Below are positions 1,620 to 62,751 of a DNA stretch of 64,000 bases, piece by piece. The stretch's first letter is position 1, and each line of letters begins with the position of its first letter. The DNA is taken from sequence record PQ850594.1, one strand, 5' to 3'. The stretch is from Escherichia phage AnnaHegner_Bas87. The translations under genes and the position numbers were made by a program. Under the pieces are notes generated by a model. The model searched no databases. It saw nothing but the letters and a program-made list of their open reading frames with translations, and was not told where the DNA came from.

Positions 1620-4600
1620 ATGGCGCTTTATCCAATAAAATCTTTAGGGGCTGTAGGGGTTATTGCTGACCAAGCTCCGACTGATTTAGCACCTAATGCT
1701 TTCACTAATGCTATCAATGCCCGCTTTGTAGAGCAAAGAGTTTTTAAGACGGGGGGCAATGCCCCTCTTTCTTATGTAGAAGAAGATAAAGAGATTACAC
1801 CACTTTCTTTTATATCAATGCCTTTTGACTACTATAGTGCAGGTAATAGCTTTCTGATTGTTGGTACAGACAAAAAGCTATACAAGCTAACAGATGAAAG
1901 TTTGACAGATATTAGCCGAAAGGTTGCTACTGTCACAAAAAGAGCTTCCGCTTCTATTAAGATATATCCGGTTGTTTCTCAGATTGTTCCTAAAGAAACT
2001 TCTATTTCAATGAATTTCAATCAAACTAAAGCCTTGGAAGTTTCTATTCTTCCTGAAGATGCTAATAACACAGCTTTAGTTTGGGAGGTTAGTAATTCTT
2101 CTTATGGTAAAGTAGAAGCTGACACCGAGAACCCTAAAACTGCAACCTTGACGTCTTATGAAAAAGAAGGGAATTTAGTAGTTACTGTATCAACAGCTGA
2201 TAAATCTATTAGTGCTCAGATTGCAGTAAACATCATAGATGGTGATTCTGGTATCTTCTTAAGTCAGGATACAATAACTGTCCGCAAAGGTGGTAACACA
2301 ACGCTAACTGCTGTTACTGGAAAAACTCCTGTAACTTGGGTCTCTAGTAATGCTTCTGTTGTGTCTGTAACACCTAATGCTAATACACTGACAGCTACTT
2401 TGTCTGCTAATGGTGAGGGTACTGTAACAATAACTGCTGATAACGGAACTAAGAGTGCTTCTTGTCAAGTTACTGTTATACCTCAGATAGATAGTATCAC
2501 TCTGAGTCAGACAAGCGTTCAAATGAGCAGGGGTACTCAGTATGTTTTAACTGCTACGGTTAATCCTTCAGATGCTCCCAATAAAAGCATAACTTGGACT
2601 TCCTCTAATCCTACCATTGCCACAGTTTCTGGAAATAGTACAGAAGCGGTAATAACAGGGTTACTAGCTGGGTTTACTGAAATCACAGCTGTTACTCAAG
2701 AGGGTGATAGATCAGCAACCTGTACAGTGAGAGTTGATTTAGCTGGGAGAATGATGCGAACTTCTGCAATGGCTTTATCAGAACCTGTTGTAGATTCTAT
2801 ACAAGAAGAAGAAACCAATAATACTCCTATCGAATCAGAAGAGGTTTTATATTTTGTTAATGAGCCATCTGGAGTTGATACCTCAGGAATGTATGAAGGT
2901 AACAACTTCTATGATTACTCAAACGTCAACGATATGGAAGGTTTTGCACGAGCTGCACTCATGTCCAGCGATACTCCGTTGCAATCTTTATCACTAGATA
3001 TCATCGATGCCTCTCTTGATGTTGGGGAAGATATTGTAATCACAGCCAATGCTTTGCCTGAGGGAGAGTATTTCTATCAGTGGACAGTGGACAAAGCAGG
3101 ATATGTTTCAACCACATCTACTACCGGGAAATCTCTAAAACTGACAGCTATTCGTAAAGGTGAGATCAAAGTTACTTGTACTGCTAGTCAAATGACTCAG
3201 AAAGATTATGATGCTTTTGACGACTATCCTTGGTATCACACCATAATCTCTAACTGTGCAGTGGCTACCACTCACTATGAAACACCACAGGTCAAAGAAT
3301 TTGAATCTGAGTATTTCGTAGATCTTCCGGGATGGGGTGAGCAAACAGTCGTTGATAATGATGGCAACCCTTCTGTTAAGAAATTTAACTGGAAGTGTGA
3401 GCGTATTCGTGCATTCAACAACAGACTTTTTGCTCTGAATATGAGGGAATCTAATGCATCTGGTGTAACTACTCACTACCCTCTAAGACTTCGGTGGTCG
3501 AATTTCGCTAACGAAAACAAAGCTCCATCTCTTTGGGATGATTATGCTTATGATCGTTTAACAACTTCAGACCTATCAGCAAACATTGTTGGTCAAACTG
3601 AGGCTTTGGAAAATGGGTACGCTGGGTATATAGATTTAGCAGATTCTAACGGAAGCTTGATTGATGTACTTCCTCTGAAAGATTACCTTTTTGTTTACAC
3701 GGAGTTCGAAACCTACATTGGCTCTCCAACCAATAACACATATCAGCCCCTTATGTTTAAGAAGCTGTTTAATGACTCTGGCATACTTGCTCCTGAGTGT
3801 GCAGTTGAAGTCGAAGGTGGACACTTCGTAGTAACTCAAAATGATGTGATCTTACATAATGGTGCATCTAAAAAATCTATAGCATCTAACCGAGTCAAGA
3901 ATCTTCTCATTAATGAGATCTGTCTAGTAAACCCTCTAGCTACTAGAGTTCACCTACACCAAGACAAGAAAGAGGTTTGGGTTTTATATGTAGGTCCGGG
4001 AGAGCCTAAAGAGAGTTTTGCTTGTAATAAAGCCGCTGTTTGGAATTATGAGTTTGACACTTGGTCTTTCCGTACAATACCATATGCTCAGTGTATTGGG
4101 TTAGTCGATCCACCAGTTCTTGAGAGAGGTCCAATCTGGGCAGATTTTCAAGAGATCACTTGGGATGATCCCTCTATTAACCAATTAGTCTGGAGAAAGG
4201 ATGCTAATAACTTCCGTCAAAGGATTACAATAGTTGGCTCTTTCCTGAAGGGATTCTATCAAGTGGATGTTGGTGCTCTGGACTACATCTACGATAGAAC
4301 CAATGATAGGATTATAGAAAAACCTTTAGAAATGAGGCTAGAAAGAACTGGTATTGATTTTGATAATGTCACTAATGAGTGGAATCAAAAACATATTAAT
4401 AGATTTAGACCTCAAGTTACTGGTACAGGTACTTATACTTTTGAAGTCGGTGGAAGTCAATTCTCAAACGAGTATGGACACAATCACTCAACTAAAGAGT
4501 TTAGGGTAGGCTCAGATCGTCATGTATCCGTGAGACTGAACCATCCATACCTATTCTATAATGTTATAGATAATGATGTTAACAGTAATGCTTCTATGAA

Positions 4601-56593: not shown

Positions 56594-56627
56594 AAAAGAA
56601 AAAGGCGCTACCCTTTCGAATAGCGCC
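56594..56627 (-). terminator. rho-independent terminator (minus strand)
   Basis: GGCGCTA-10 nt loop-TAGCGCC hairpin followed on minus strand by a T/C-rich run. Confidence 0.55.
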
Positions 56628-56646
56628 CCATGTGTTTTATTGTTGG

Positions 56647-57558
56647 TTATGCTGCCAGTTGACGCGCTGCCATAATCTCAGCGGCCTTGCGCAATACTTC
56701 TTCCTCTTCCTGCGCAGCTTTCTCGTTAGCTTTAACAGTCGAGGCGTTTGAGATACGACCGCGAAGGTTAGATAATTTCTCAGTCATTTCGTTGATCGCC
56801 TTTTCCATTTCATCAGCGTATGAGTCCAGAGATTCAAGCTCTTTAGTCGAGGCATTAATCAGGTAGTCATCGCTGATAGAAACAGTTGAAGCGGTTACTT
56901 TCTTAAGGAGTGAATCGAAAGTTTTCTTAACTTTGCCTACTTCTTCACTCAATGCGATAGTATTGTCAGAAGATGCGCCGTTGCGTTCATCTGCCAGTAG
57001 TGCCGCTTCAATACGGATTGCAGCCAGACGGTCAACCAGTGCATAAATATCCTGATTAAAGTTTTCGTTAACCTTCTGGTTGATCTGGTTTGCTACCGGA
57101 ACGTTGTCGTTGCAACCTTTGTAGAATGCTGGGTTATCAACCTGCACGTCTTCACCTTTAGCAAAGCGTTCAAAGGAATTAGACCAGCGGGCGCGGTTTT
57201 GTTCCATTTTGGCCTTAACTTGTTCCGGTTTAGCATCCTCTTTCGCTTTCGCTTCACCTTCCAGATTAATCCATTTCTTTTTACCGTTCGCCCCGTCGCT
57301 GTTGTACTTGATCGGGGTTAAGAAAGAGATGGCAACCGCAATCACGTCTAAGTCACGATAACGCTCAGTTAACAAGAAATCAACCGCCGCCTGCAATACA
57401 TCCAGTTTCTTACCGTTGGTGCGGAAGTGCTGCAAATGGCCTAACAGGAAGTTAGAAACATCTTGTTTGATTGCCGCGTTGTTGCTACGAATGTTGTTAG
57501 CCAGTGCATTAAAGCCGGATTCGTTAACCAGATTAAAAACTTTAGCCATGATATTCAC
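56647..57558 (-). CDS. hypothetical protein, first long ORF after the ORF-free leader
   Basis: 303 aa; Ala/Lys/Glu-rich helical composition. Confidence 0.45.
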   Translation of the reverse strand: MNIMAKVFNLVNESGFNALANNIRSNNAAIKQDVSNFLLGHLQHFRTNGKKLDVLQAAVDFLLTERYRDLDVIAVAISFLTPIKYNSDGANGKKKWINLEGEAKAKEDAKPEQVKAKMEQNRARWSNSFERFAKGEDVQVDNPAFYKGCNDNVPVANQINQKVNENFNQDIYALVDRLAAIRIEAALLADERNGASSDNTIALSEEVGKVKKTFDSLLKKVTASTVSISDDYLINASTKELESLDSYADEMEKAINEMTEKLSNLRGRISNASTVKANEKAAQEEEEVLRKAAEIMAARQLAA

Positions 57559-57616
57559 CTTTCAATTGTAAGGGCACTATGCCCCGCTCTCTATGAGCTT
57601 TTTAAGTCACTATTGA

Positions 57617-57656
57617 CTTATCAATAATCACTCAATATCAAGTAATTATTGATAAG
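57617..57656. promoter_or_regulatory. perfect 12 bp inverted repeat, operator-like
   Basis: CTTATCAATAAT-16 nt-ATTATTGATAAG about 60-100 nt upstream of the 57558 start. Confidence 0.4.
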
Positions 57657-58468
57657 CGAGGCGGTCTTATCAGGAGTTAACCTTGCCGCCTCCTTATCCG
57701 TGATGTTTCATCTGGTATCTTTAATTAGTCGCTATAAATAAAGCCGACCTGATAGCGATGATCAATCATCACAATAAGGCAGTGCGTCCGACTCTATTTA
57801 ATTACTTTATCGTAACCGTCGGCAATATCGTCTACTTTGCTTTCGCTCCCGCCTATCCTTTTGTACTAACTCTCAATCGCTAACCATCGCCCACTACGGG
57901 AGGTTATTGCGAAAGAGTCATTAGCCGTCTAATACATTGACGTTTTATATCTTTCAGCAGGTTTACTACATAAACTGATTATGTACGCCATCAATAGTGG
58001 CCTCAAATCATTCACATCGTAAACGTTCACACTAAACCTTTTTGTTAAATAGCAATTTGCCACTTTTTAACCATTCACCGCCGCCCCCAATTGGGCGTTA
58101 ATTCGTCGGATTTGCCTACCCTGATAAACTTCTTTCACTGTAGCACCTTGTTAGCGATGGCCGCCGCTACCCTTTAACCGTGGGCGATTAGTTTAGGCCG
58201 TTGCGTGTACTCAATGAATCCGTTTTATCAGTGGTGACGTTTCCAGTTAAGGGATTGTAAAAACTGTTTACCCTGATAATTTAGGGAGTCTTACGCCGTT
58301 TTATCTGGTATGTTTTCCGATGGTTATTATCATCCAACATATTCAACCGATATAGGAGAATGTTTAAATTGTTAAAGAGCGGTAAATCTATCAGTGTGCT
58401 TTCTCACACTATGCAACTGTTAGCCGTTGTTACGCTTTTCTTAAGCGGTGAATTGCTTAAGTGTGCTC

Positions 58469-58497
58469 ATTATGAATCATGCTGTTTTAGCTGTCAA
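58469..58497 (-). promoter_or_regulatory. sigma-70-like promoter (TTGACA-17 bp-CATAAT), leftward
   Basis: on minus strand TTGACA at 58492-58497 and CATAAT at 58469-58474; part of a 38 bp repeat. Confidence 0.45.
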
Positions 58498-58955
58498 CCG
58501 CTTTTTTAATCTTTTTCGTCGTTCCCGCTGTTGGGAAGATATATCAACCAGCTTTGTTTGATTGAAGATTAAGCGGTAAGGCTTAACTTATGATTCATAT
58601 TTTTAAAGAGCGGTGAAGCATTTACAGCTTAACACATCGTGTTAGCTTGTCAACTCTTTTTATCATCTTCTTTTATTCTATTCCCTTATCTCGCTTGAAT
58701 CTTTGCGAAAGGGCAAGATGATAAGTCTGATTTGTCTTTTAGGAATCTAGTGCGCTTTCAAGCATCGACCATTTGAAAGTATCGAACAAATGAGGCTTAT
58801 TTTGTTGCTCATCGTCCGCCTGTTTCACGTATGAATCAGGAATCAATTCTAGTGGTCAACTAAGCGCCTTATAGTAATGACGTCGCCGCCACCTGTAAGA
58901 CAAATCATATTTTTAAAGAGCGGGGATATTTTAAGTCATCGCTGACTGAGTGCTT

Positions 58956-58984
58956 ATTATGAATCAGGCTGTTTTCGGTGTCAA
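58956..58984 (-). promoter_or_regulatory. sigma-70-like promoter (TTGACA-17 bp-CATAAT), leftward, repeat copy 2
   Basis: same arrangement and about 85 percent identical 38 bp block. Confidence 0.45.
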
Positions 58985-59161
58985 TACTATTTTTAAAGTA
59001 TTTTCACTTTCTAGCCTGATTTTTAAAGAGCGTAGCACTTTCATTGTGCGTCTTACTGTCGGTATTCCTACCGCTCCCCGTTGAAGCCTTTTACCGTGAT
59101 GCTAATCACCTATCGAGGAGTTTTTACTACTTGTTGTTACTTACTGCTTACTACGGGATTC

Positions 59162-59189
59162 ATATTACTATACAGGAAAACCCTGTCAA
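59162..59189 (-). promoter_or_regulatory. weaker sigma-70-like promoter within 85 bp duplicated element, copy A
   Basis: TTGACA on minus strand at 59184-59189 with TAATAT-like -10. Confidence 0.3.
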
Positions 59190-59393
59190 TACCCTTTTTT
59201 CAAATTATTTTATATCTCACTGTTTTATAAAGGAATTTATTTTAGGGAGGATAGGAACTACAAAGAAATCAGGAGGTAAAGGAACGTGCACGCGTGATAC
59301 ATCACAAGAAATGGCTTGTAAAGCAATAATAAGCGTCCTGTAACGCATCACAACGAGCTAAAAGGGAGTAAGGCATACAATCACCTTAGAAAT

Positions 59394-59417
59394 GAAAAAA
59401 GCGCCTCAAAAGGGCGC
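59394..59417 (-). terminator. rho-independent terminator (minus strand)
   Basis: GCGCC-loop-GGCGC hairpin followed on minus strand by TTTTTT; directly after stop of 59439-59765. Confidence 0.6.
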
Positions 59418-59438
59418 TTAGAGAGTCTTACGGATTGG

Positions 59439-59765
59439 TTACGGATTGGTGCAAGTGCCGTTACCGGATGATATTTCGTTCATCGACTCATCGAACAACG
59501 TCATTCTAGACCGCATCATGTGATCTATAGTGATTTGCTTTCCGGTAATTTCGTTAACAAGCATCGCATACTTGCCATCAACGACACGATGATCATAGTC
59601 ATTCAGGTCAATCAATACTACCTTGCTAGACTTCTTGCCAGTGTCGTAGTTTTCCATAAGATAGGTGCATTGCAGACCATCTAAACTGGCCTCGTTGAAT
59701 ACGGCAGCATGTGACACGGAAGAAACGGCGAACAAGGCAGCAAATACAGCAAATTTAATTTTCAT
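59439..59765 (-). CDS. small secreted periplasmic protein
   Basis: start moved to internal Met: MKIKFAVFAALFAVSSVSHA signal peptide. Confidence 0.45.
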   Translation of the reverse strand: MKIKFAVFAALFAVSSVSHAAVFNEASLDGLQCTYLMENYDTGKKSSKVVLIDLNDYDHRVVDGKYAMLVNEITGKQITIDHMMRSRMTLFDESMNEISSGNGTCTNP

Positions 59766-59857
59766 GATCCAACCCTTAAGCGGAACGTGCAACAAAGAAA
59801 AACAAGTCATAGATAAATGCTATGATACAGAGAACTAACAGACAATGCAAAAAATAC

Positions 59858-60133
59858 TTATGTAACATTACTCACCACTTTATCTAGATGATCATCGAAC
59901 GTTTCACAAATGGATTGCACTTCGTCAATATCTAATAGCAGACCGTGACGGGCAAAGAATTGAGCTAACTCAAGATAATCCGCACCAATAAGCATGACAC
60001 CATTGAAAGGGGCGATCTTAACATCTTGAGATGTTACCAATAATAAATTACCAATATCAGCAATAGCGTCATAATTCAGTGTAACGCCTACGCCGTAATT
60101 ATGTGTTTCAATAATGGCGATAGTTTCCATCAT
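59858..60133 (-). CDS. hypothetical protein
   Basis: ORF only. Confidence 0.35.
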   Translation of the reverse strand: MMETIAIIETHNYGVGVTLNYDAIADIGNLLLVTSQDVKIAPFNGVMLIGADYLELAQFFARHGLLLDIDEVQSICETFDDHLDKVVSNVT

Positions 60134-60396
60134 TAGTTATCCTCGATAGTCAATAACTCTTCCAGCGATAAGCCAGATTTAACCAGCAAATCACGATACT
60201 CGTTAGCATCCATCGGATCAAGGCCGGACAACTGAGCGATAGTCATGCGTGCACGTAATGAAGATAAAGACACTAGCGCACGGATAGGGATCAGTACAAG
60301 CCCATATTTACCGCTGATAACTAAATCACCATGCTGGATGCACATGTAGGCGTTTATCACGGTTGCAAATGATTCGTTCATTGAATAGCCTCGCAA
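60133..60396 (-). CDS. hypothetical protein
   Basis: ORF only. Confidence 0.35.
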   Translation of the reverse strand: MRGYSMNESFATVINAYMCIQHGDLVISGKYGLVLIPIRALVSLSSLRARMTIAQLSGLDPMDANEYRDLLVKSGLSLEELLTIEDN

Positions 60397-61238
60397 TTAG
60401 CAAAGTTAATAAAGGTTGTATAAACTGCTACACCGTCATTGTAAGCAGTGGTAGCGAGTACAGTTTCACTCACATCACCATAACTAACGAGATTAGTTAC
60501 AAACTGTAATTTCTCTTTCTCAACCTTCTGGTAAAGAGAATACGTCACCATATCACGATCACTATCAGCACGTTTCAATTTAATAACTGATTGAATGCCT
60601 GATTTCTCGTCCAACGGGGTAAGAGTGACACGAACATCTTTTACGGTTACAGAGTTAAAATGCACCTTCCAGAATGAATCATTACCATCACTGCCAACGT
60701 CACGGCAGACCATATCAGGAGCATTCTTAAACGTGCTAACAAAGGATTGCAGACCAGTAGAAAGAGAGTCTTTTGCCTGAACATTGGTAGCGATAGCACT
60801 AACACCGATAGCTGCAACCAGTGCATAAGAAGCCAGATTAACAGACTTCATAATCTTATTTGCAATAGAAGGCTTGCTATCTTTCTTCTTGTTCTGAATA
60901 GCTTCAACCATAGCAGACAAGCGGGCTAATACTGCGTTAACATCGCGGCAAGATTCAGGCCAATCCTTTTGAGTCCAACTATCTAAATTAGCCTGAATGT
61001 AACAGTTGATAGCATCTTGCATATCGGTAAAACCATTCTCTTTCATCGACTCTTTATCTTCACACTGTAAGGCGTTCGCGGTGGAATCAATGATAAGGCA
61101 AGCCAGAATGACAGAGTTTTTGAAGCTGGTACGAGCTTGCTGATTATCCATCCATTGAGAAGGCACACCAACGGAAAGACCTAACGAAGAAAGTACATCA
61201 TTTGCTTGATTCAAGTATTTAATTGCTAACTTTGACAT
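60378..61238 (-). CDS. membrane protein with central signal-anchor-like helix
   Basis: 286 aa; central MKSVNLASYALVAAIGVSAIATNVQA segment between two soluble domains. Confidence 0.4.
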   Translation of the reverse strand: MSKLAIKYLNQANDVLSSLGLSVGVPSQWMDNQQARTSFKNSVILACLIIDSTANALQCEDKESMKENGFTDMQDAINCYIQANLDSWTQKDWPESCRDVNAVLARLSAMVEAIQNKKKDSKPSIANKIMKSVNLASYALVAAIGVSAIATNVQAKDSLSTGLQSFVSTFKNAPDMVCRDVGSDGNDSFWKVHFNSVTVKDVRVTLTPLDEKSGIQSVIKLKRADSDRDMVTYSLYQKVEKEKLQFVTNLVSYGDVSETVLATTAYNDGVAVYTTFINFANCEAIQ

Positions 61239-61283
61239 TTCATTAATCCTTTCGGTTGATGTGAACTACAAACTACGATTGCA

Positions 61284-61311
61284 ACTATATATTAAAGGAA
61301 AAACCTGTCAA
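61284..61311 (-). promoter_or_regulatory. sigma-70-like promoter (TTGACA-16 bp-TATAGT), leftward, within 85 bp element copy B
   Basis: about 45 nt upstream of the 61238 start. Confidence 0.45.
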
Positions 61312-61424
61312 CTACTTATTTTCAAACTATTTCATAACTCACTGAATATAAAAGGAATTTAATTTACTAAACTTTCTTGTTCAGAGGAATGACTAACTAA
61401 AAGAATGTTACTTTATAACACTTA

Positions 61425-61975
61425 TAGAACGGGTAGCAGACCAACGGGATAGATAGATGGGTAAGACGTGCCGCATAGGTTAGCCAATGGGTAAGAAGCC
61501 TAACGAGGAAGGGGAAACGGGTGGGATATAATGTAAGTTAGTTACAGGTAACAGGTCAGACCATGCGGTAATAAATTACCAGTCAAAAATCTACTCATCA
61601 AAAGAAAAAAGAAACGCTGAAAAAGAAAAGAATAAAAGAAAGAATAAAAATAATAACTAAAGTAAACAACTACCAGTCTAAACATACATACATCAATAAT
61701 CCACTCATGAATAATCACATAAGTTATTACATTCAAACTATGGGGGATGGTCATCAATGGTATAGTTGCATAGTGTTACTAGTAGTTATCATAGGTTATC
61801 ATTAGCCTGATCATAGTCACTATTATAGCCCCTTAACAGAGGCTAGCCTTTCATCCTTCCTTAACATGAGTAAGAGAAATACGGGTAGGAAATCACTGGT
61901 TAGATATACATGGGTAAATAATGCATGTGTAATATCAATGGGTAGGGTATTTATGGGTAGGGATACCACTGGTAG
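61425..61975. repeat. iteron-like array 1 of (A/C)(T/C)GGGTA-type motifs
   Basis: at least 8 dispersed copies (e.g. GATGGGTAAG, AATGGGTAAG, CATGGGTAAA, AATGGGTAGGG, TATGGGTAGGG) in ORF-free DNA, separated by a purine-rich A tract. Confidence 0.6.
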
Positions 61976-62184
61976 CAGGTAGGCTAGGGCTTAGAGCTTA
62001 AAGGCTGATTGATTTCCTAAAGGCAATTGCATTGGTAATAACCCTTTTTTAAATGAGGACTCCCCCTTTTTAGGAAACGCGCTCGGAGAGGCTAGGTCCA
62101 TCCGGTCAAATTGAAATTTTAAACTCTTATATATAACTATATGCCCCAACGTTAGTTGTGGATTTAAGAATAAGGAACTATTTT

Positions 62185-62349
62185 ATGTGGAATATTAAGT
62201 TACTAATTAAGCAATTCAAATGTCAACACGAATACTACCCGATACGAATATCGAGAGGTGATGAACGGTTACACGCTTATTACAAGAGTACTTGGAGATG
62301 CGCAGACTGTGGTAAGGTTAGGAATAGTAAATGGGTGGATAGGCCTTAA
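62185..62349 (+). CDS. small zinc-ribbon protein, HEW/CxxC-family-like
   Basis: start moved to ATG 62185 with AAGGAA RBS (track start is GTG 62158); FKCQHEY...WRCADCGK. Confidence 0.4.
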   Translation: MWNIKLLIKQFKCQHEYYPIRISRGDERLHAYYKSTWRCADCGKVRNSKWVDRP

Positions 62350-62460
62350 TGGGTATGCCTTAATGTGGGGTAGCCTTTATGGAGTCCCTTTACTTCAGCG
62401 TACATGGGTTAGTACATGGGTGGGCCTTTAGATGAGTACGCCTTTATGGGTTGATCACTC
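62325..62460. repeat. iteron-like array 2 of ATGGGT(A/G/T) motifs
   Basis: 6 further copies, the first inside the 3' end of ORF 62185-62349. Confidence 0.55.
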
Positions 62461-62484
62461 TCTTATATCAGAGGAGATATAAAA

Positions 62485-62751
62485 ATGATTCTAGACTTTT
62501 TATCAGAGTTGATTCCTTACTTCCGCACTGAAAAATGTGCATTTAAAGTTGAAGAAGTTGGGGACACTGAAGTAATAACTTGTTTGGGTAGATTAGTAGA
62601 CCTAGACGATGATGAAGATTTTGATGTTACAATAGACCTGAGTTCATTGGGCTGGTTGTACATGAGATTTTGCATAACCTACAAACCTGAGACTTATAAA
62701 GACTATCGTTATAGTGATAACACTGACACTGAAGGAGAGAATGATGAATAA
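62485..62751 (+). CDS. small acidic protein
   Basis: GGAG RBS; Asp/Glu-rich, acidic C-terminus. Confidence 0.4.
   Translation: MILDFLSELIPYFRTEKCAFKVEEVGDTEVITCLGRLVDLDDDEDFDVTIDLSSLGWLYMRFCITYKPETYKDYRYSDNTDTEGENDE

Follow-up and report, generated by a model that had tools for sequence, protein, structure and literature searches.

The window, that is, the whole 64,000-nt stretch of DNA from Escherichia phage AnnaHegner_Bas87 (PQ850594.1) that was analysed, is matched at 80-95% identity by 98 Gordonclarkvirinae records, with which the taxonomy agrees, and it reads as a phiEco32-like (Gordonclarkvirinae) coliphage genome in circularly permuted form. The direct terminal repeat of NC-B falls at the same place as the ends of the records for phiEco32, SU10, YF01 and NC-B itself, which puts the genome end at 62093. 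Leftward of this end, a sequence element occurs twice, as copies B and A, on either side of a small operon and its terminator; past copy A lie an array of boxA-like sites and a long segment free of open reading frames. From right to left, the features are:

61901-62093, no strand: direct terminal repeat, corresponding to the physical genome ends (record mapping)
61268-61375, minus strand: copy B, whole element (about -98 to +10; profile match, E = 1e-24)
61336-61366, minus strand: far-upstream conserved block of B, TAAATTAAATTCCTTTTATATTCAGTGAGTT, 90-100% conserved in 15 B copies
61314-61335, minus strand: UP-element-like tract of B, 9-10/14 to NNAAAWWTWTTTTNNNAAANNN
61284-61311, minus strand: predicted core of promoter B, TTGACA (61311-61306), 16-bp spacer, TATAGT (61289-61284), 11/12 to consensus
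59439-61238, minus strand: B operon, a putative early operon of four small genes (ORFs of 286, 82-87, 91 and 108-123 aa)
59399-59419, minus strand: predicted intrinsic terminator closing the B operon, ~210 bp upstream of the -35 hexamer of promoter A
59146-59254, minus strand: copy A, whole element, in the same register as B at an offset of 2122 bp
59214-59244, minus strand: far-upstream conserved block of A, TAAAATAAATTCCTTTATAAAACAGTGAGAT, from the alignment with B and conservation
59192-59213, minus strand: UP-element-like A/T tract of A (-59 to -38 register), 12/14 specified positions of NNAAAWWTWTTTTNNNAAANNN
59162-59189, minus strand: predicted core of promoter A, TTGACA (59189-59184), 16-bp spacer, TAATAT (59167-59162), 10/12 to consensus
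58372-59031, minus strand: array of further predicted promoters and four boxA-like sites, from sequence scans
57559-58400, minus strand: ORF-free, highly structured RNA segment, from the last boxA to the start codon of a 303-aa gene

The -35 hexamer of promoter B stands ~780 bp inside the right genome end and belongs to the outermost promoter. Copy B had been placed upstream of the gene for a 286-aa protein, and indeed the ATG of this gene (60378-61238, minus strand), with a ribosome-binding site, is found 45 bp downstream of the -10 hexamer. The same holds for the placing of copy A before an ORF-free leader, in which no minus-strand ORF is longer than 44 aa. Pfam returned no match for the five neighbouring proteins; four of the five fall in PHROGs families, three of which are of unknown function and the fourth of which is labelled 'terminase', a label that is doubtful here. 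A terminator is annotated in both SU7 and SU10 at the place where the one closing the B operon is predicted.

Copies A and B had been described as a duplicated element of about 85 bp, and the pairwise alignment bears this out. Over the coordinates first proposed, 61 of 86 positions are identical, and the core of the repeat (59171-59244 versus 61293-61366) has 58 of 74 positions in common (78%). The alignment is ungapped, at a constant offset of 2122 bp; the gap drawn in 'GGAAAA-CC' by the original prediction is not needed, the two copies differing there by a substitution. The longest exact runs between them are of 11 bp or less. A profile widens the homology to 59146-59254 (A) and 61268-61375 (B), and a search with it detected no third copy in the window (next match, E = 0.99).

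Each copy carries, as had been noticed, a leftward TTGACA at -35, and in each the hexamers are arranged as in sigma-70 promoters, with a spacing within 16-18 bp and a T-rich 16-bp spacer. The A and B cores are the top-scoring promoter-like sites in a region of 8 kb. Their start sites are predicted at about 61276-61277 for promoter B and 59154-59155 for promoter A, and the sequence CGTAGT (about +1 to +6) is common to the two. Of 22 copies compared, taken from 15 phages, 21 have TTGACA, and the -10 hexamer does not vary within either type: both hexamers are unchanged in the seven A copies and in 14 of the 15 B copies, the exception being a UViG contig with TTGTCG and TATAGT. The TTTTCCT spacer and the hexamers are kept across all 22 copies while the flanks diverge. 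Taken together, these features support the view that A and B are leftward sigma-70 promoters and would be active as such. Early genes of phiEco32 are known to be transcribed leftward by the sigma-70 holoenzyme. [quoted passage not shown] The homologue of copy B is listed in Table S2 of the same study, at position 76677 ('upstream of CDS125'), and the annotation of SU7 has a promoter at the position of copy B and a terminator at the same place as here; the promoter of copy A (at ~74202 in SU10) is not among the predicted early promoters of SU10 in Table S2.

Three readings of the repeat other than a duplicated leftward promoter can be weighed against these data. A chance likeness of two AT-rich stretches deserves mention, since the region is rich in A and T and has no excess of generic sigma-70-like matches over shuffled sequence (19 versus 20.2). 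However, when the 74-nt core is scanned over both strands of the window, the mean is 20.0 matches (sd 3.8) and the best unrelated match has 38/74, which puts the 58/74 of A and B ~10 sd above the background for AT-rich DNA, as the alignment check proposed with the original prediction called for. Moreover, copy A queried against 2.3 Gb of phage records retrieves B-type copies elsewhere (78% over 74 nt, E = 3e-8), and A and B are both kept at orthologous positions in other phages; the odds of coincidence are negligible. The repeat had further been interpreted as a promoter-plus-leader module. The promoter half of this interpretation stands, on the strength of the hexamers, their conservation and the listing of promoters in SU10 and SU7; the leader half does not, since the homology ends at ~+6. 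Both copies have a promoter and the short stretch CGTAGT at the start site, but identity is at background within ~10 nt downstream of the predicted start, and the transcribed sequences that follow are unrelated, a 38-nt 5' UTR for B versus a 1.6-kb untranslated region for A. In the direction of transcription, homology begins ~92 bp upstream of the predicted start and stops at CGTAGT, and ~85% of the sequence common to A and B is upstream of the -10 hexamer. The shared part, from about -92 to about +6, is therefore a promoter with its upstream region and not a promoter with its leader, and we regard a duplicated leader as very unlikely. Less probable still is a plus-strand function of the block, be it that of a divergent promoter directed rightward or that of a ribosome-binding site (AAAGGA) for a small ORF. 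The plus strand reads TATAAAAGGAATTTA, with -10-like and Shine-Dalgarno-like sequences, yet no plus-strand promoter-like site was found inside either copy and neither a start codon nor a conserved ORF comes after the block; to the right of B, all of the DNA as far as the terminal repeat is non-coding, and to the right of A there is the back of a terminator. The duplicated unit, then, reads as a core promoter together with an UP-element-like tract and a far-upstream block.

The two upstream parts differ in how well they are matched. The UP consensus NNAAAWWTWTTTTNNNAAANNN, at -59 to -38, is the one reported by Estrem et al. (1998). The 12/14 score of the tract of A is reached by only 7e-5 of the positions in the window; that of B (9-10/14) is weaker, with a background frequency of 0.4-1.8%. 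The far-upstream block, at about -58 to -92 in both copies, recurs upstream of early promoters in distant phages of Salmonella and Cronobacter; it is found in the Grimontviridae phages 7-11, SeKF_80, A24 and ECO319P1. The distance from CAGTGAG in the block to the -35 hexamer falls into two classes, one of 24 or 26 nt and the other of 35 or 37 nt. These are ~11 bp apart, or one helical turn, which suggests that the block may be a phase-dependent binding or bending site, an argument built on only two independent changes (the 11-bp insertion of PAS59 and SU7, and the 7-11 group versus A24). Pattern scans did not broaden it, because the matches were mostly due to chance: a scan of IMG/VR with AAATTCCTTTN6CARTGAG gave 15 loci, of which only Kuravirus contigs are genuine; the pattern WATAAATCARYGAGTTA is too short and gave more than 120 chance matches; and the scan of a single metagenome gave 48 loci, essentially all by chance, with the exception of a Kuravirus contig (L194) and a possible relative (L155). 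Several binding sites were also sought by eye in the block, and none held up. A CRP site would consist of a single half-site, which in several copies lacks the key G; a Fis motif is not seen in A, and its G...C spacing is wrong by one position; sites for H-NS and ArcA agree with their motifs at ~7-10 of 10-15 positions, and do not do so in both copies; the gp36 late-promoter motif tAATGTAtA is absent.

Copy B is present in all 15 genomes compared and copy A in seven of them (the window, EK010, phiEco32, SU10, YF01, Paul and EP335), as well as in two further contigs (L024 and L194). In the other phages compared, the position of copy A is occupied by a different promoter, which in the MLP3-like phages has TTGCAA with an extended -10. 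Between 58700 and 59400, the window is 97-100% identical to phiEco32, SU10 and Paul, and the flanks are MLP3-like. Copy A thus rides on a cassette of ~0.7 kb that has been exchanged between phage lineages.

Two further proposals concern what the repeat may do in addition to, or by way of, its promoter. One is that the far-upstream block is a site for the host DNA-bending protein IHF, centred near -72; the bend would fold the DNA upstream of it back against RNA polymerase, with a stimulating effect on the promoter. The 13-bp core consensus in use in the literature is WATCARNNNNTTR; an IHF-like core, ATTCAGTGAGTTA, is found at 61335-61347 in copy B, and the cores of SeKF_80, A24 and ECO319P1 (AATCAGTGAGTTA) match the consensus perfectly, as does that of 7-11 (AATCAGCGAGTTA), where the change affects an N position. 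At 8-19 nt upstream of the core comes an A/T tract, a feature also of the lambda H' IHF site. The block is, at ~35 bp, of the size of an IHF footprint, and its spacing to the -35 hexamer shifts by ~11 bp, one helical turn. Against this, there is one mismatch to the consensus in most coliphage B copies and there are two in the A copies and in the B copies of phiEco32 and SU10; the motif carries only ~15 bits; the TGAG at its 'N' positions is itself conserved, which is not an IHF requirement; the copies of the block are not independent observations, because they are homologous; and the phasing would be accounted for equally well by contacts of the alpha-CTD, by intrinsic curvature or by a phage protein. 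An IHF site is on balance doubtful, and in naming IHF we can offer a guess at a candidate site. The other proposal is that the copies serve mainly as patches of homology, much like the PeSL cassettes of T4, at which early-gene cassettes are swapped when phages co-infect a cell, or are duplicated and deleted inside one genome, the likeness of A and B being a by-product. In its favour, the homology between lineages in B copies breaks at the downstream edge of the promoter: CGTAGTTTG is where the shared sequence of SU7, PAS59 and Bas86 ends, and in IME267 and the UViG contig the break comes immediately past the -10 hexamer; the first downstream gene then differs (286-290 aa versus 163-166 aa). 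Relatives also vary in the genes that make up the B operon, and A sits on a phiEco32-like cassette within an MLP3-like background. However, two copies per genome, at 78% identity and with no exact run above 11 bp, make a poor substrate for homologous recombination, and conservation is concentrated at positions relevant to promoter function, so that selection on the promoter alone explains it. As the main role of the repeat, recombination therefore seems to us unlikely, and a recombinational link would be an added role, not an alternative to promoter function. A and B would be alike because of shared descent and selection for the same promoter functions.

Downstream of copy A, further -35 hexamers are found at 58984, 58653 and 58497 (minus strand), and further start sites are predicted at about 58949 and 58462. 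With GCUCUUUA(ACAA) in the RNA-sense strand as the definition of a boxA, the sequence GCTCTTTAA occurs at 59031-59023, 58921-58913, 58611-58603 and 58380-58372, one after each promoter including A. These four are the only occurrences of GCTCTTTAA in the whole window, all on the minus strand and within 660 nt, and the region of the fourth, GCTCTTTAACAATTTA, is identical to the E. coli rrnB leader at 16 of 16 positions. In 15 phages, the boxA core is invariant while its flanks vary, and the alternation of promoters and boxA sites is kept. The sites lie ~9-125 nt downstream of the predicted starts, and ahead of 0.8 kb of untranslated RNA and a terminator at 56602-56629. A candidate hairpin precedes each boxA, with individual z-scores of only -1.1 to -2.2. 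The canonical boxA GCTCTTTA was not found in the 1.2-kb leader of phage 7-11. By their sequence, then, the boxA sites of the array may act in Nus-factor antitermination. Our search of the literature found nothing that joins phiEco32 or Kuravirus with boxA or antitermination.

The ~830-nt segment that follows the last boxA has a predicted structure of 240 pairs, modelled as 35 helices, with 98.9% of cells paired. Compensatory changes are seen at 67 pairs versus 5-9 in slid controls (0/500 shuffles), the structure is strand-specific, and no coding signal was detected in the segment. Each of the 97 Gordonclarkvirinae genomes searched has the segment at full length, without annotation in any of them, and it is better conserved than the neighbouring protein genes. 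A search with Rfam 15 over 57400-62200 (gathering score or E <= 1) returned only a spurious mir-310 (E = 0.21), and nothing similar was found in genomes of E. coli. With a covariance model built from one domain, no match was obtained in 7-11, SeKF_80, A24 or ECO319P1, and by BLAST between leaders the common parts are the promoter and boxA only. We have little doubt that the segment is a genuine structured RNA, and we lean towards the view that it is not already described.

These observations can be joined in one explanation. [quoted passage not shown] Promoter B would transcribe the four-gene early operon, and transcription would halt at the intrinsic terminator. Past this terminator, copy A would open a tandem series of three or four promoters, with a candidate hairpin and an rrn-type boxA after each. 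The tandem promoters may launch transcription that is modified by Nus factors and resistant to termination, which would run through the 1.6-kb untranslated structured RNA and continue into the long leftward cluster of early genes. The stronger proposition, that copy A is the entry to a phage-borne mimic of an rRNA operon and drives a genuine and undescribed ~830-nt structured RNA, stands at about even chances.

The closest counterparts are the early promoters of phiEco32 and SU10, which belong to the same phage group and have the same genomic positions and hexamers as those described here. Early sigma-70 promoters have reportedly been characterised in phiEco32. The accessible phiEco32/SU10 literature gives the -35 and -10 hexamers, and does not describe the ~100-bp paralogy, the block at -58 to -92 or boxA. 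In the E. coli rrnB operon, as is predicted here, tandem strong promoters with UP-like tracts (P1 and P2) are followed by a leader in which a hairpin (in the phage a candidate one) precedes a sense-strand boxA shortly downstream, and a long untranslated structured RNA comes after. The rrnB leader has boxB, boxA and boxC and is served by an antitermination complex of Nus factors and SuhB. In rrnB, however, two promoters have one common boxA, whereas the phage has three or four promoter/boxA modules; moreover, the array of the phage lacks a GC-rich discriminator and a recognisable boxC, and its RNA resembles neither rRNA nor any Rfam family. Phage T7 has strong early promoters for the host polymerase (A1, A2 and A3) in the first kilobases from one genome end, directed inward, and their transcription pulls the genome into the cell. 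The promoters described here are also clustered near one end, promoter B ~0.8 kb from it, but no boxA follows the promoters of T7, and a role in DNA entry, which is known for T7, would here be an analogy. PeSL (promoter-early stem-loop) cassettes were reported from T4-type phages by Arbiol, Comeau and Krisch (2010). As in these, repeated early-promoter sequences flank variable early genes and adjoin the breakpoints of mosaics; in contrast to a many-copy, near-identical array, the window has two copies of 78% identity and none further, and the stem-loop (the terminator) is 210 bp away, outside the repeat. Lambda PL and Mu Pe are sigma-70 promoters stimulated by IHF. The likeness to these lies in a core resembling the IHF consensus, with an A/T tract, upstream of the UP-like region and with the helical phase kept; the difference is that the coliphage copies match the consensus imperfectly, making theirs a candidate site.

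phiEco32-like phages are known to begin infection at the right genome end, with strong promoters of host type, and the repeat adds detail to this picture: two of the early promoters would be paralogues that share, besides the core, ~55 bp of upstream DNA. This upstream DNA is kept as far as in phages of Salmonella and Cronobacter and is thus likely to be an activator or bending site. For phages of the 7-11/phiEco32 type, in which the mechanism of early antitermination is said in the literature to remain 'to be defined', the boxA signals provide a concrete and testable candidate and, if the proposal is true, would answer how phiEco32-like phages read through the terminators in their long early transcripts. 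The ~830-nt RNA, if it is real and undescribed, would add a new member to the large structured RNAs of phages, one made very early in infection under antitermination by host Nus factors. Since it occurs in a well-studied and easily manipulated group of coliphages, it would offer an accessible model for large non-coding phage RNAs.

The two copies, A and B, form a genuine duplicated element. Their alignment, offset by 2122 bp, needs no gaps and shows identity at 61/86 positions over the segments first delimited and at 58/74 over the core. The best unrelated match of the core on either strand of the window reaches 38/74, and the background score of the 74-nt core against both strands is 20.0 ± 3.8; the pairwise alignment places the identity well above AT-rich background. 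Moreover, a search of a 2.3-Gb phage database with copy A retrieves B-type copies from other phages (E = 3e-8). When both copies are combined in a profile, the element lengthens to the coordinates listed here, and no third copy is detected in the window. Because the genes of this region lie on the minus strand, the element is read as its reverse complement.

Features of the region
61268-61375, minus strand: copy B, reading ...TAAATTAAATTCCTTTTATATTCAGTGAGTTATGAAATAGTTTGAAAATAAGTAG-TTGACA-GGTTTTTCCTTTAATA-TATAGT-TGCAATCGTAGT
59399-59419: intrinsic terminator closing the copy-B operon, also annotated in SU7 and SU10
59146-59254, minus strand: copy A, layout as in copy B, -10 hexamer TAATAT
57559-58400, minus strand: structured RNA segment, 842 nt from the last boxA to the start codon of the 303-aa gene (RNA of about 830 nt)
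About 57885-57895, 57563-57577 and 57578-57591: hairpins with a shared loop in the structured RNA (coordinates approximate)

In a promoter scan, B, A and two further sites in the ORF-free spacer downstream of copy A are the top promoter-like sites in 8 kb (11/12, 10/12, 11/12 and 11/12, respectively). The sequence shared by A and B begins near -92 and ends with the start-site motif CGTAGT; about 85% of it is upstream of the -10 hexamer. Thus, of the promoter-plus-leader module originally predicted, the promoter is upheld and the leader is not. Between -59 and -38, copy A has a tract that matches 12 of 14 UP-element consensus positions (window frequency 7e-5), and the tract in copy B matches 9-10 of 14. 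We regard the finding as a genuine duplication in which what is predicted to be a strong early promoter was copied together with its upstream activating region. The duplication is of an ordinary kind, and relatives already have part of it annotated. The same layout is described for SU10, "like phiEco32", with a promoter upstream of its last gene, a post-operon terminator and three promoters in the next spacer (PMC4281155). Since the copy-B orthologue is listed in SU10 Table S2, at 76677, together with spacer promoters at 73996, 73668 and 73511 (PMC4281155), copy B is a predicted promoter already known. The copy-A orthologue (at about 74202 in SU10) is absent from the same table (PMC4281155), and appears to have been overlooked. 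Copy B is 45 bp away from the start codon (ATG) of the 286-aa gene and stands at the head of four small ORFs, none with an assigned function. The N-terminus of the small early protein encoded at 59439-59810 (minus strand) resembles a signal peptide (MKIKFAVFAALFAVSSVSHA). Its PHROG carries the label 'terminase', as do the annotations in MLP3, IME267 and Bas86; this label looks wrong.

By megablast, 98 phage records match 57500-62500 at 80-95% identity, all of them from Escherichia or Shigella phages of the Gordonclarkvirinae (Kuravirus, Suseptimavirus, Nieuwekanaalvirus), the phiEco32 group. Several of these records terminate within this interval. Position 62093 is the mapped record end of phiEco32, SU10, YF01 and NC-B, and the 194-bp terminal repeat of NC-B maps to 61901-62093, which makes the window a permuted assembly. 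Both copies fall within 3 kb of the right physical end, where phiEco32 and related phages are described as having a leftward-transcribed early region. The motif ATGGGT(A/G/T) occurs ten times at 61457-62446 (plus strand), within about 0.5 kb either side of the terminal repeat, against about 0.5 per kb elsewhere; these could be terminase or end-recognition sites. By sliding identity (58650-59400 compared with records L002, L005, L006 and L008), the genome is a mosaic. The segment 58700-59400, which includes copy A, resembles phiEco32, SU10 and Paul at 97-100%, and both its flanks are MLP3-like: left of about 58650 the window is about 100% MLP3/IME267-like, and right of 59400 it is MLP3/SU7/TH34-like. 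Copy A is therefore carried by an exchanged cassette, the right junction of which lies just past the terminator, at a conserved TTTCTAAGGTGATTG.

The comparison covered the right ends of 14 relatives, together with IMG/VR contigs. All 15 genomes compared contain copy B; copy A occurs in the window, EK010, phiEco32, SU10, YF01, Paul, EP335 and two more contigs. In 22 aligned copies the -35 and -10 hexamers, the TTTTCCT spacer, TTTGAAAA and the block TAAA-TAAATTCCTTT are 90-100% conserved, and the positions in between are variable. Where copy A is missing, its position is taken by another promoter, with TTGCAA and an extended -10 (TGTATATT), followed by a hairpin and then TGCTCTTTAA, the hairpin-then-boxA order of the rrn leader. 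This alternative promoter lies at about 3150-3330 (minus strand) of record L002 and at the equivalent place in L001, L010, L012, L013 and L015; its tight hairpin, AGGCTAGATGTTTAGCCT, abuts TGCTCTTTAA. At the B copies, homology between lineages often ends at the downstream edge of the promoter, and the first downstream gene differs, which fits promoters also acting as recombination joints, in a secondary role only.

The far-upstream block is conserved across phage families. As AAATAAATTCCTTTATAAATCAGTGAGTTA, it also precedes a TTGCAA-17 bp-TAATAT promoter in four phages of the Grimontviridae (Salmonella phages 7-11 and SeKF_80, Cronobacter phage A24 and Escherichia phage ECO319P1), at the corresponding end of their genomes; 7-11 and phiEco32 have no more than about 30% of ORFs in common (7-11 paper).

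Distance from CAGTGAG of the block to the -35 hexamer
Window copies A and B: 26 nt
A24, ECO319P1: 24 nt
PAS59, SU7 (11-bp insertion): 37 nt
7-11, SeKF_80: 35 nt

The spacings fall into two classes one helical turn apart, so that the block appears locked in helical phase, which suggests a site that has to be presented to RNA polymerase on one face of the helix. Such a site may conceivably bind IHF, a reasonable, unproven candidate to which we give rather less than even weight: in the Grimontviridae copies the block core agrees fully with the consensus WATCARNNNNTTR, most B copies deviate from it at one position and A copies at two, and an A/T tract lies upstream at the expected distance. Explanations that would fit equally are alpha-CTD contacts, intrinsic curvature or another protein. 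An unrelated 61-kb metagenome contig, Ga0210394_10000757, has the same block-to-promoter layout (L155 4448-4500, minus strand: AATTCCTTTACAGGTCAATGAGTTA, 24 nt, TTGACA, 17 bp, TATAGT); either distant relatedness or a chance resemblance may account for it.

Downstream of promoter A and of each of three further spacer promoters lies one copy of a four-copy repeat, CGCTCTTTAA(A/C)AA on the minus strand. All 4 occurrences of GCTCTTTAA in the whole window are on that strand, within 660 nt (58372-59031), and the fourth copy, GCTCTTTAACAATTTA, agrees at 16/16 positions with the E. coli rrnB leader in its boxA region. The promoter/boxA alternation, in 3-4 modules, is kept in 15/15 phages, and boxA also occurs in A24. 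A hairpin precedes each boxA, none being individually significant. Judged by sequence and position, the four sites are rrn-type boxA elements, from which we infer that Nus factors would bind and promote antitermination. A fifth boxA-like sequence, TGCTATTTAACAA (58042-58054, minus strand; 12/13 to rrn boxA), invariant in 15 phages, lies inside the structured RNA, partly in a predicted hairpin. In phage 7-11, too, a leader of about 1.2 kb without ORFs separates the right-end early promoters from gene 151 (record L031 2600-2890 joined to L154, reverse complement); this leader has neither a canonical boxA nor detectable similarity to the coliphage RNA.

The spacer is 85-98% identical to those of phiEco32, SU10, EP335 and Paul, the adjacent 303-aa gene 65-82%. 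Its 842-nt segment, more strongly conserved than the genes flanking it, is full length in 97/97 records found, where annotation is almost always absent. Fifteen sequences of 853-863 nt align at 90% mean column identity, and their RNAalifold consensus has 240 pairs in 35 helices, with 98.9% of cells paired. Compensatory double changes affect 67 pairs and 234 cells in these 15 phages; sliding the 3' partners by 1-3 columns leaves 5-9 pairs and 12-23 cells, and the observed values were reached in 0/500 shuffles. The RNA structure is strand-specific, with a consensus energy of -239.8 kcal/mol for the sense and -153.7 for the antisense strand, and 357 G-U cells in the sense structure. No coding signal was found in the segment (variable columns by position mod 3, 108/116/105; longest stop-free stretch at most 66 aa); neither Rfam 15 nor complete E. 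coli genomes gave a match, and a covariance model of one RNA domain found nothing in the Grimontviridae loci. In the outermost predicted helices, the boxA region is paired with the stretch around the next gene's Shine-Dalgarno sequence and AUG; these helices are unsupported because they never vary. Three hairpins (CCCGUAGUGGG, GGGGCAUAGUGCCC and AGCUCAUAGAGAGC) share a C-[R-U-A-G-W]-G loop, which may be a repeated protein-binding motif. Copy A leads, then, into an rrn-like promoter/boxA array and a large structured RNA previously without annotation.
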